Source: an uncultured Gammaproteobacteria bacterium
GTDB taxonomy: Bacteria; Pseudomonadota; Gammaproteobacteria; JABCZS01
Assembly (NCBI GenBank): GCA_963798975.1
Contig: CAWCVU010000017.1
Span: 90,198-154,197, forward strand
Length of the DNA: 64,000 nucleotides
Direction: 5' to 3'
Position numbers: made by a program. Positions 6,001-9,000 of this stretch are shown piece by piece (position 1 is the stretch's first letter; each line of letters starts with the position of its first letter).

Positions 6001-9000
6001 AAAAATTGCAACGTATAATAGAATTATTAGATGTTAAAATCAGTAGTAAAATCCCTTTGACTAGTAACATTGGAGATAATATTATGAGTATTATGAAATT
6101 TTGGTCGGTATGGAAGAAACAGTAGTTACCCGCGATGAATTTCCATTGCAAAAAGCACAGAAAGTTTTAAAAAATGAAGTATTGCAGTTATTGGTTATGG
6201 TGTGCAAGGTCCTGCGCAAGCGCTGAATTTAAGAGATAATGGCATTTCAAAGTGATTATTGGACAAAGACCCAATTCTGCTTCATGGGATAAAGCCATTA
6301 AGATGGTTGAACCCGGAGAGATTTATTTGATATTGAAGAAGCTTGTCAAAAAGGAACTTTTATTTGTTATTTATTATCCGATGCCGCACAAATGCAATTT
6401 TGGCCTAAAGTAAAAAAATATTTAACAGCTGGAAAAACTTTGTGTTTTTCGCACGGTTTTTCAGTAACTTATAAAGATAAAACCGGTGTAGTCGTACCTA
6501 AAGATATCGATGTTAGTTTAGTTGCCCCTAAAGGCTCTGGTCGCAGTGTGCGTAAATTATTTTTACAAGGTAAAGGCATTAATGCCAGTTATGCGGTTTA
6601 TCAAGATGCTACTGGACAAGGCGAAGAAAAAATTCTAGCATTTGGCAGTGCATAGGTTCTGGCTATTTATTTAAAACTACTTTTAAACATGAAGTGTATA
6701 GCGATTTAGTTGGTGAACGTGGCGTATTAATGGGTGCATTGGCTGGAATGATCGCTGCGCAATATAAAGTATTACGTAAACATGGTCATTCACCCAGTGA
6801 AGCTTTTAATGAAACCGTGGAAGAATTGACTCAAAGTTTGGTCCCTTTAGTGGGTGAAAACGGTATGGATTGGATGTATAGCAATTGTTCAACCACCGCT
6901 CAACGCGGCGCATTGGATTGGACAAATCGTTTTGAAGCGGCCGTAACACCGTATTTGAAGATCTCTATCACAGTGTAAAAGGCGGTCAAGAAGCTGCTGT
7001 AGTTATCAATGAAAATTCACGAAGCGATTATAAAGAACGTTTACAAGCTGAATTAGACAAAATGCATAATGAAGAAATATGGCAAGTTGGACGACAAGTT
7101 AGAACCTTGCGCCCTACGGAGAATGGCTATGTACCAGCTGATTGATTTTTTCAATAAAAAACCAGTTAAGGCAACTGATTTAGTATTTACTGATAATGAG
7201 ACGCCATGGGAAATTCTAATGGATTTGGACTTGGTTAAAGATAAACTTGCGCTTGATGATTTCAAGCTCAAGACACCTAAACTGACTAAATATTTACCTT
7301 TAATGCCCATTAAAAATCCTGACGATTTTATATCCCTACAGGAAACAGCAACGCCATTAGTGAACAGTAAAAATTTAGGTAAAACTTGGGACATTGATTT
7401 ACTATTTTAAATCGAAGGCAAAAATCCTACGGGTTCATTTAAAGATCGAGGTTCTGCCCTAGAAATTTCTGTTGCCAAAGAATTAGGTGCAAAAGCGATT
7501 ATTCTGCATCAACCGGTAATATGGCTGCTTCTTGTGCCTGCTATGCCAGCGGCGCAAAAATACCTTGTTTTATTTTGGTCCCAGAAGGCGTTCCGATGAA
7601 TAAATTAGCGCAAGTATTGGCCTTTGGCGGTCATATTGTTCAAGTCAAAGGTAATTATAATGACGCTGCCTCACTTGGCGGAAAACATGGCGGTAAGATG
7701 GGCTTTTATTTAGCGGGTGATTATGCTTTTCGTGTTGAAGGCCAAAAAACTGCTGCGTTTGAATTAGTCGATCAATTATTTTGGCAAGCACCTGATGTGG
7801 TGATAGTGCCGATGGGGTGTGGTACGAATATTGCTGCTTATGCCAAAGGATTTAATGAATATTATCAATTAGGTTTAATTAATAAAATACCGCAATTAAT
7901 TGGCGTACAAGCTCAAGGTGCCGATGCCATAGTACGTAGTTTTAAAAATCATGATCACCATATTACCCCACTGGCCAGCGTAGATACTATCGCCTCGGCC
8001 ATAGCTGTACCTAATCCGATTGATGGCATCAAAGCCCTGCAAGCGATATATACGAGTGATGGCATTGCCATTGCTGTGAGCGATCAAGAAATTTTAGAAG
8101 CACAATATTTATTAGCGACTCATGAAGGTCTATTTGTTGAAAGTTCATCAAGCGCTACCATTGCTGCCATTAAAAAATTAGCGCCTGAATTTAAAGGCAA
8201 AAAAGTCGTGTGCATATTAAGTGGGGATGGTTTAAAAGATGCCGGCGTGGTCTTAAAATCAGCATTTAAGCCGTTAAGCATTTACCCCAGTGAACACGAA
8301 TTTCTGAAACTTTATGAAAATAATTTCTTTAATACTAAATCCATGTTTTTTGATGATAAAAATAAAATTGTATTTGATAAAAGCCCAACTTTAGATCAAA
8401 TTAAAAATCAAATTAAATCTTTATTTGATGCAACCTATTCAGATGAATACATCAATAAAATTAAATTTATTTTAGATAAAATCTTACAAAAAGGTAAAGC
8501 CATCACCATCTCTGATCTGCAAGATAGTTTACAAGAGGCCTTGGAAACACCCAAAGTGGCTTTGCGTAAACTTTTTTCTGTCTTAGATTTTGAAGTGAAA
8601 AGTAGCAAAGATCGAAAATCTGATGCTTTAATAAAAGTTGAAATCGCAGGCGAGCAACATGAAGCACAAGCACAAGGTGCTGGCCCTGTCGATGCAGTCA
8701 TTAAAGCCTTACAAGTGGCCTGCCATGGTAAAATTGATTTTTCTTTATTAGATTATAAAGTAGAAATTCGTAATCCAGGGGTTGATGCTTTGGTGCATGT
8801 TGAACTTAAACTGGCGAAAGATGGTTTATTTTCTATCGGACGAAGTACTTCGCCTGATATCATTCAAGCATCCATAGAAGCATTTGAAGAAGCCTATAAT
8901 GGGATTTATCATGACTAAACTTAATGAATACAGCTGCCATATTACTCAACCACGTTCACAAGGTGCTTCACAAGCCATGCTTTATGGAACAGGTTTAGAT

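Follow-up and report, generated by a model that had tools for sequence, protein, structure and literature searches.

What does a threonine synthase-like enzyme with a LeuA-type regulatory domain do at the place in an ilv operon where ilvA would be expected? The question is raised by a 64,000-nucleotide stretch (the window) of contig CAWCVU010000017.1 from an uncultured gammaproteobacterium (assembly GCA_963798975.1). In this window, a gene joining a threonine synthase (ThrC)-type pyridoxal phosphate (PLP) enzyme to a LeuA/CimA-type domain lies between ilvC and ilvD. We use X as a working name for this ThrC-like/LeuA_dimer fusion family. A first-pass annotation made from the sequence alone had proposed that X is a feedback-regulated enzyme feeding 2-oxobutyrate, or a related precursor, into the pathway. 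Our analyses support a role in 2-oxobutyrate supply, since the C-terminus is a LeuA_dimer domain and intact orthologues are ilv-linked, features from which the activity itself is inferred. We consider it fairly likely that window positions 7129-8918 hold the gene, inactivated not long ago, of an enzyme that formed 2-oxobutyrate under feedback regulation, probably by deaminating threonine, and that took the place of IlvA.

Architecture and decay of the window copy of X

The extent and parts of X in the window are as follows.
7129..8918, + strand: X pseudogene, whole; about 595 codons, reading through one TAA and one -1 frameshift
7129..7407, + strand: N-terminal extension (~50 aa), then the first part of the PLP domain; frame 1 (aligned with 13 intact relatives)
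7408..7410, + strand: premature stop TAA in place of the Lys94 codon AAA (DNA alignment with intact loci L089 and L125)
7441..7443, + strand: codon of the PLP-binding lysine in NPTGSFKDRGS, equivalent to Lys61 of Thermus ThrC (alignment to 1uim_A)
7505..7506, + strand: frameshift site, one base deleted just before the ASTGNM motif (DNA alignment; tblastn frame change from 1 to 3)
7506..8225, + strand: rest of the fold-type-II PLP domain, in frame 3 (Pfam PALP; mapping onto five solved ThrCs)
7521-7523, 7716-7724 and 7818-7820, + strand: clade-specific replacements STGN-M, G-D-Y and G-C-GTN (the last coordinates being the Cys codon), from motif comparison
8226..8507, + strand: helical linker, homologous to the LeuA accessory/linker subdomain (TIGR00973 alignment; model helices at 422-473)
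8508..8906, + strand: LeuA_dimer allosteric/dimerisation domain with motifs GAGPVDAV and SPDIIQAS (PF08502; profile search; Foldseek)
8911..8918, + strand: 8 nt shared by the X stop and the ilvD start, ATGACTAA (sequence; tblastn ilvD start at 8911; same in L089)

The gene had initially been taken to begin at 7123, but orthologues begin with MYxL (MY(Q/x)L), which makes the ATG at 7129 the more likely start. By tblastn, the intact orthologue in L089 aligned to the window at 71% identity, with residues 1-126 in frame 1 (7129-7506) and residues 127-591 in frame 3 (7506-8900). X was translated as two pieces (7069-7503 in frame 1 with the TAA read through, and 7497-8918 in frame 3), in which NPTGSFKDRGS and the other motifs quoted for a fold-type-II ThrC-type core were all found. 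Pfam placed PALP (PF00291) profile positions 1-59 on the first piece (37.7 bits) and 60-295 on the second (177.9 bits), together with LeuA_dimer (PF08502) on residues 338-470 of the second piece, corresponding to nt 8508-8906 (91.7 bits, E 4.7e-26, gathering cut-off 24.9, spanning profile positions 4-130 of 131). These were the only domains in the Pfam scan of X, which contained no HMGL-like TIM-barrel domain (PF00682). NCBIfam ranking gave the same division, with threonine-synthase models first for the core and the last ~170-180 positions of bacterial LeuA for the tail. The assignment of the C-terminus to LeuA_dimer was borne out by the Pfam hidden Markov model, by a profile search against solved structures and by a fold search. 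The LeuA-like part is, however, longer than the ~110 aa first ascribed to it, since the last ~170-180 aa of X are covered by positions 324/334-494 of TIGR00973 leuA_bact and the part including the linker subdomain comes to ~170 aa. The N-terminal extension is a degenerate remnant of a Zn-ribbon present in distant relatives. At the other end, the X stop TAA (8916-8918) overlaps the ilvD ATG at 8911 by the eight nucleotides ATGACTAA, identically in the intact L089 locus, an arrangement that we read as translational coupling and that agrees with the coupled position between ilvC and ilvD described at first.

The two lesions noted in the first-pass annotation, one TAA and one frameshift, were both seen in DNA alignment with the two intact same-genus orthologues (L089 and L125). 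The AAA to TAA change at 7408-7410 is a substitution without insertion or deletion in the codon of Lys94, which is invariant in 87 family members. The frameshift reflects a single base, an A in the relatives, gone between 7505 and 7506 (CT-GCA versus CTAGCx), outside any homopolymer. Of the 146 columns at least 97% conserved across the 87 members, just four have changed in the window copy (K94 to stop, A184G, A188G and T384S), against none or one in intact members, so inactivation is recent. At 7674-7700 (+ strand), a conserved helix (consensus L-A-x-x-I-A-x-K) has become the Gly-rich LGGKHGGK through clustered point substitutions, including two at family-invariant alanines, which is consistent with relaxed selection after inactivation. 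A compensated double frameshift at these positions was rejected, as the other frames hold a stop or do not match.

The remains of the surrounding operon are listed below.
4119-5801, + strand: ilvB remnant, in several frames (tblastn with L089 proteins)
5817-6059, + strand: ilvN remnant, in several frames (tblastn with L089 proteins)
6110-7124, + strand: ilvC remnant, in several frames (tblastn with L089 proteins)
8911..10583, + strand: ilvD remnant, in three frames (tblastn)

In the same genome, outside the window (contig C13:26986-29980), leuA is broken by a frame change near residue 51 and leuC near residue 433, so the leucine branch is decaying along with the ilv operon. The genome's thrB-thrC genes are intact, and an ilvE homologue aligned in one unbroken frame over residues 6-299. 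With ilvB, ilvN, ilvC, X, ilvD, leuA and leuC all decaying beside intact thrB-thrC, the window copy of X most probably no longer works, and the pattern of loss connects the family with branched-chain amino acid synthesis and not with the supply of threonine. Could both lesions instead be assembly or sequencing errors in a gene that is truly intact? The assembly is a draft (2.16 Mb, 39.5% GC, 34 contigs, 73.6% marker completeness) and the copy differs at so few highly conserved positions that errors are conceivable, but one lesion is a base substitution, the deletion lies outside a homopolymer, all neighbouring ilv genes and the leuA and leuC genes on another contig are broken, several of them repeatedly, and further substitutions hit family-invariant alanines (A184G, A188G). 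We therefore consider such errors a very unlikely explanation.

Further along the window, a 222-aa conserved hypothetical gene that lies 3' of ilvD in L089 is split over two frames (10790-11400, + strand). Interrupted copies were also seen in Francisellaceae. In one independent genome (L139; G061:C1:731000-741000) X, ilvD, ilvB and ilvC are all interrupted, and in another (L138; G057:C1:1224500-1234500) X alone is interrupted, by two TAA codons, and ilvC, ilvB and ilvD read through; we regard these two as independent cases of loss. A third genome (G072) holds a truncated X (one TAA, ~383 aa matched) with adjacent ilvC twice, ~14 kb apart (C1:1456554-1457693 and 1470804-1471943), which suggests a recent segmental duplication of a decayed ilv region.

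Family X, its operons and the missing IlvA

By searching 5.8 billion proteins, we found more than 100 full-length relatives of 594-643 aa that are 55-77% identical, all composed of PF00291 and PF08502 and, where named, called "threonine synthase". About 17 distinct fused clusters were present in a library clustered at 50% identity, and atlas clusters of the same fused architecture stem from further phyla. Named carriers include Cysteiniphilum litorale, Facilibium subflavum and several Francisella species, and carriers among metagenome-assembled genomes (MAGs) belong to Legionellales, Coxiella, Bdellovibrionales, Chlamydiae, Planctomycetota, Woesebacteria and Peribacteria. Within the small order to which the window belongs, X occurs in four of five other genomes of the same genus, and the other three genera are without it. 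On these sequence grounds, intact X appears to be a widespread, distinct enzyme family that databases label "threonine synthase". The architecture had been described as one not known from a characterised enzyme, and our full-text literature searches turned up no paper on fused PALP and LeuA_dimer.

A tree separated canonical ThrC from a "STGNM/GDY" clade (Shimodaira-Hasegawa-like approximate likelihood ratio test (SH-aLRT) support of 99 for both), with all fused forms in one subclade (SH-aLRT 98). Short forms with ilv linkage are nested among the fused ones, which points to repeated loss of the C-terminal domain. A fused X from Candidatus Peribacteria (L032, 3873-5828) keeps a CxxC...CxxC zinc ribbon, so the fusion would be older than the loss of the ribbon. 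Fused X is also retained in candidate phyla radiation (CPR) genomes of only 1.1-1.2 Mb (L027, Woesebacteria; L032, Peribacteria). Methanoperedens and Methanosarcinaceae (L052 and L037; genomes G017 and G018) hold an unfused STGNM/GDY protein with an N-terminal Zn-ribbon and no ilv neighbours. In both genomes two ThrC-type genes score higher, which makes this protein the third ThrC-like paralogue, so the motif does not mark a housekeeping enzyme there either. Cysteate synthase was considered for these archaeal relatives and set aside, as no cysteate-synthase model matched at E <= 1e-40.

Gene context was taken from precomputed gene calls and from open reading frame and phmmer annotation of 85 loci, which were in agreement. 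All fused loci with enough flank, from Legionellales-like bacteria, Francisellaceae, Bdellovibrionota, Chlamydiae and CPR, lie within ilv operons (L009-L013, L015-L023, L027 and L089-L093). The usual order is ilvB-ilvN-(ilvC)-X-ilvD, often followed by ilvE or leuA-leuC, and the Francisella-type order is X-ilvD-ilvB-ilvN. The Woesebacteria locus has ilvB, ilvN, ilvD and ilvC near X; only leuC was detected in that of Peribacteria. Three unfused close relatives (L025, L026 and L030) hold the same ilv position, and no ilv genes adjoin the more distant unfused relatives, which are mostly archaeal and ~40% identical. One uncultured gammaproteobacterial MAG (G005) carries, besides the fused gene, a 405-aa unfused paralogue that has the same N-terminal extension and directly adjoins ilvE (L099:1390-2604 (-) and L099:215-1111 (-)), and neither thrB nor another thrC was detected in it. 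RidA was rejected as evidence of linkage, being present in 19 of 20 carriers but also in 12 of 14 controls and never adjacent to X in this clade.

X is not an ordinary housekeeping ThrC in most of its hosts. A separate ThrC of ~430 aa is present in 16 of 20 carrier genomes, and it adjoins thrB in all five neighbourhoods inspected (G000, G002, G003, G004 and G032). thrB was found in 13 of the 20 carriers; in four (G005, G022 and two CPR genomes) neither thrB nor another thrC was detected. Canonical IlvA, already reported as lacking from the window, was likewise not found by a PALP search of the whole 2.16-Mb assembly. The PALP proteins of this genome besides X are a 319-aa unregulated Thr/Ser dehydratase (PRK06815 type), TrpB, an intact ThrC and a protein like 1-aminocyclopropane-1-carboxylate (ACC) deaminase, the last label being a reading of the sequence by eye without a family scan. 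PF00585 (Thr_dehydrat_C) was detected in none of five carrier genomes, and no protein reached the ilvA_1Cterm cut-off in 20 carriers or in 48 Francisellaceae genomes. No dehydratase-type PALP protein other than X was found in 16 of the 20 carriers, and in Cysteiniphilum and one Francisella genome X, TrpB and ThrC are the only three PALP proteins. Each of five carriers checked has just one LeuA/CimA-sized HMGL-like protein.

Across the 48 Francisellaceae genomes, X and ilvC occur together in 31 and are both lacking in 14; X without ilvC was found in two, both fragmentary assemblies, and ilvC without X in one. We present this as a pattern without a statistic, as related genomes are not independent observations. 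The ilv operon of F. novicida U112 is given as ilvD-ilvB-ilvH-ilvC, without ilvA, and is inactivated in pathogenic subspecies (PMC2394750), and a review describes the branched-chain amino acid (BCAA) pathway of F. novicida as intact, with threonine usable as a precursor (PMC5368251). X could in principle catalyse an unrelated PLP reaction (e.g., beta-replacement or racemisation) and merely travel with ilv genes, and the wider STGNM/GDY clade does contain unfused paralogues without ilv neighbours, such as those of Methanosarcinales-type archaea. Against this stand the tight and repeated ilv linkage of the fused subclade across phyla, its co-occurrence with ilvC in Francisellaceae, a feedback domain typical of BCAA pathways, and 2-oxobutyrate supply being the only unfilled pathway step in these genomes. 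Such a role is the least probable of the explanations that we weighed, and we give it very little credence.

Candidate reaction and feedback control

The solved proteins closest to the core of X are ThrCs (~39-40% identity). An AlphaFold2 model of an intact orthologue, P0004, reached a mean predicted local distance difference test score (pLDDT) of 87.8 and a predicted template modelling score (pTM) of 0.81, and its core matched the ThrC structures 2ZSJ, 6NMX, 2D1F and 1UIM with a TM-score (TMt) of 0.84-0.87, so that modelling upholds a ThrC fold. X keeps Lys61 (the PLP lysine), the S-T-G-N loop and Arg160 (1uim numbering), and the Arg160 equivalent, R202, is invariant in the family. Five solved ThrCs, ranging from bacteria to Arabidopsis, all have T88, N154-S155 and N188; X has M, G-D and C at these positions, with the G-D loop one residue shorter than the N154-S155 loop. 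G-D-Y and the M are invariant across the 87 family members and the Cys is present in at least 90%; some distant fused clusters have Asn, Tyr, Phe or Met at the Cys position. We take T88, N154, S155, R160 and N188 (T. thermophilus numbering) to be ligands of the substrate/product phosphate in ThrC. Phosphate bound in ThrC steers the reaction to threonine and away from 2-oxobutyrate.

The core would thus be a class-I ThrC-type PLP core with a rebuilt substrate-phosphate pocket, joined through a LeuA-type linker to a dimerising LeuA/CimA-type regulatory domain. In this proposal the invariant Asp would sit where ThrC holds the catalytically helpful product phosphate, filling in the phosphate pocket, and X would run the last ThrC step backwards, releasing 2-oxobutyrate. 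Intact X would form 2-oxobutyrate, the first isoleucine-specific intermediate, probably by deaminating L-threonine. A BCAA, most plausibly isoleucine, would bind at the interface of the paired C-terminal domains and throttle activity, and X would thereby stand in for the missing IlvA. Allosteric control would have been gained by capture of the LeuA/CimA linker and regulatory domain. That X is a new class of biosynthetic threonine deaminase, derived from threonine synthase and equipped with this captured module, is a narrower claim for which we see the case as evenly balanced.

We favour threonine deamination because the phosphate pocket is altered, because four carriers have no detected thrB or other thrC, and because threonine is reported as a BCAA precursor in F. 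novicida (PMC5368251). The main alternative, on account of the retained Arg160, is that X converts O-phosphohomoserine (or another activated homoserine) directly into 2-oxobutyrate, ammonia and phosphate, by a gamma-elimination in which water is not added back. Such a route would bypass threonine and still feed isoleucine under feedback. ThrC enzymes can form 2-oxobutyrate from O-phosphohomoserine as a side activity. They are also reported to form it by threonine deamination (PMC12172450). The invariance of R202 and the presence of thrB in 13 of 20 carriers are in line with use of O-phosphohomoserine, and the operon and profile evidence fits it equally well as it fits a threonine deaminase. 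However, four other pocket positions invariant in ThrC are replaced, one by an acidic Asp, thrB is undetectable in four carriers, and the review of F. novicida names threonine as the precursor (PMC5368251). We judge this reaction unlikely, though the strongest of the alternatives to threonine deamination.

X might also be a true threonine synthase isozyme, inhibited by Ile or Leu, that boosts threonine while another enzyme makes 2-oxobutyrate. P0004 does exceed the generic thrC cut-off of TIGR00260, the best PDB matches are all ThrCs at ~40% identity, and four of 20 carriers have no ThrC-like gene besides X or its short paralogue. But the other 16 already have a separate ThrC, 16 of 20 have no dehydratase-type PALP protein to use the threonine, the ThrC-invariant pocket residues are replaced, P0004 falls under the cut-off of the closest equivalog PRK08197 (258.7 versus 303 bits), and the window copy decays with ilv and leu genes while thrBC is kept. 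A synthase isozyme is therefore improbable, somewhat more so than O-phosphohomoserine elimination. Membership of the IlvA family fits no better, as X scores 97-129 bits against the IlvA model TIGR01127, far under its cut-off of 378.75.

The proposed feedback control rests on the regulatory module. A single-sequence phmmer search with the C-terminal 200 aa found no match in the PDB, and a 15-sequence profile of the last 200 residues matched solely the regulatory domain of Leptospira citramalate synthase (LiCMS; 3F6G/3F6H, E 2e-7). With Foldseek, the C-terminal model (pLDDT 78; strand-strand-strand-helix, twice) matched Leu-bound M. tuberculosis LeuA (3FIG, E 4e-10; also 1SR9) and the Ile-bound LiCMS domain (3F6H/3F6G, TMt 0.80-0.83, root-mean-square deviation 2.4-2.6 A). 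The top 12 matches were M. tuberculosis LeuA or the LiCMS domain only, and the next was ~10^4-fold weaker. We take nine LiCMS positions to contact Ile, of which D431, L451, Y454, I458, V468 and P493 are identical in X, T464 is T or V, Tyr430 is Val and Gln495 is Ile; the numbering that we assumed fits the chain sequence. For the C-terminal 201 aa, homodimer prediction gave a score of 0.53 (best control 0.00), a mark attained by 20 of 30 proteins with solved paired structures and by one of 23 with single-chain structures; resemblance to the known LeuA/CimA dimers may lie behind this score. Contacts were shared to at least 91% among the three runs, partner pLDDT was at least 76, and the invariant GxGPVD and SPDIIQ motifs make up the predicted interface. 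On the effector, sequence points both ways, as LeuA models score higher, yet the sole solved match of the sequence profile is the Ile-binding CimA domain.

Several points weigh against a feedback-regulated threonine deaminase under isoleucine control. P0004 scores above the generic TIGR00260 model (218.1 versus 167.1 bits), and in the four carriers where X is the only ThrC-like gene it could be the threonine synthase. Arg160 is retained, so the substrate may be phosphorylated. An unregulated small Thr/Ser dehydratase is encoded in four of 20 carriers, as it is in the genome to which the window belongs, and could be a source of 2-oxobutyrate, and the single LeuA-like gene per carrier could be a citramalate synthase or bifunctional. 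The C-terminal region scores higher against bacterial LeuA (77 bits) than against citramalate synthase (38 bits), so the effector could be Leu rather than Ile. Most carrier genomes are incomplete MAGs, and related ones are not independent. The lack of a TIGR00191 match counts for little, since three Bdellovibrionales genomes carry thrC but no such match. Substrate, product and effector of X are what we infer from the observations above.

Significance and relation to known enzymes

If this proposal is correct, isoleucine synthesis in several lineages, including cultured Francisellaceae, starts with an enzyme unlike IlvA in both ancestry and allosteric hardware. It would explain the "missing IlvA" of Francisellaceae, Legionellales-like bacteria, Bdellovibrionota, some Chlamydiae and CPR, and close a real gap in pathway reconstruction of these genomes. 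Hundreds to thousands of "threonine synthase" annotations, a name given by TIGR00260 (NCBIfam), would then be wrong. X would also be a natural case of domain re-use, in which a PLP enzyme took over the feedback domain of an aldolase-type synthase, and as such relevant to enzyme evolution and to the engineering of Ile-responsive control. The broken copy in the window would document ongoing pathway loss in a host-associated Legionellales-like bacterium, with a parallel in pathogenic Francisella (PMC2394750).

With class-I ThrC (EC 4.2.3.1; 2ZSJ of A. aeolicus, 2D1F of M. tuberculosis, 6CGQ/6NMX of B. subtilis, 1UIM/1V7C of T. thermophilus), X has in common the fold-type-II PLP core, the PLP lysine in SFKDRG, the S-T-G-N loop and Arg160. 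Unlike ThrC, X adds the ~50-aa N-terminal extension and a ~200-aa LeuA-type C-terminus, lies in ilv operons and not with thrB, and coexists with a separate ThrC in most carriers. With IlvA (EC 4.3.1.19; E. coli 1TDJ), it shares the superfamily fold (TMt ~0.55-0.8), the operon neighbourhood and the presumed pathway step, and the feedback logic, in which the end product acts on a C-terminal domain, would be the same. Identity to IlvA is only ~23%, however, the regulatory module is LeuA_dimer whereas that of IlvA is the ACT-like Thr_dehydrat_C, and the ancestor of X would be a ThrC and not a member of the dehydratase lineage. From the LeuA (3FIG, Leu-bound) and CimA (3F6G/3F6H, Ile-bound) domains, X conserves the motifs G-x-G-P-V-D-A and P-D, with fold matches at E 4e-10 to 2e-8; in LeuA/CimA this domain regulates an HMGL-like TIM-barrel aldolase domain, whereas in X it is carried by a PLP enzyme. 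Other ThrC-family proteins are reported to form 2-oxobutyrate, among them mammalian THNSL2. The "moonlighting" ThrC of Microcystis (PMC12172450) and the side reaction of T. thermophilus ThrC show by precedent that forming 2-oxobutyrate, by threonine deamination or by elimination from O-phosphohomoserine, is within reach of a ThrC scaffold. In these proteins, which keep the ThrC phosphate pocket where it was looked at, it is a side or secondary activity of enzymes with neither a LeuA-type regulatory domain nor ilv linkage, the two features that X combines with the same scaffold.

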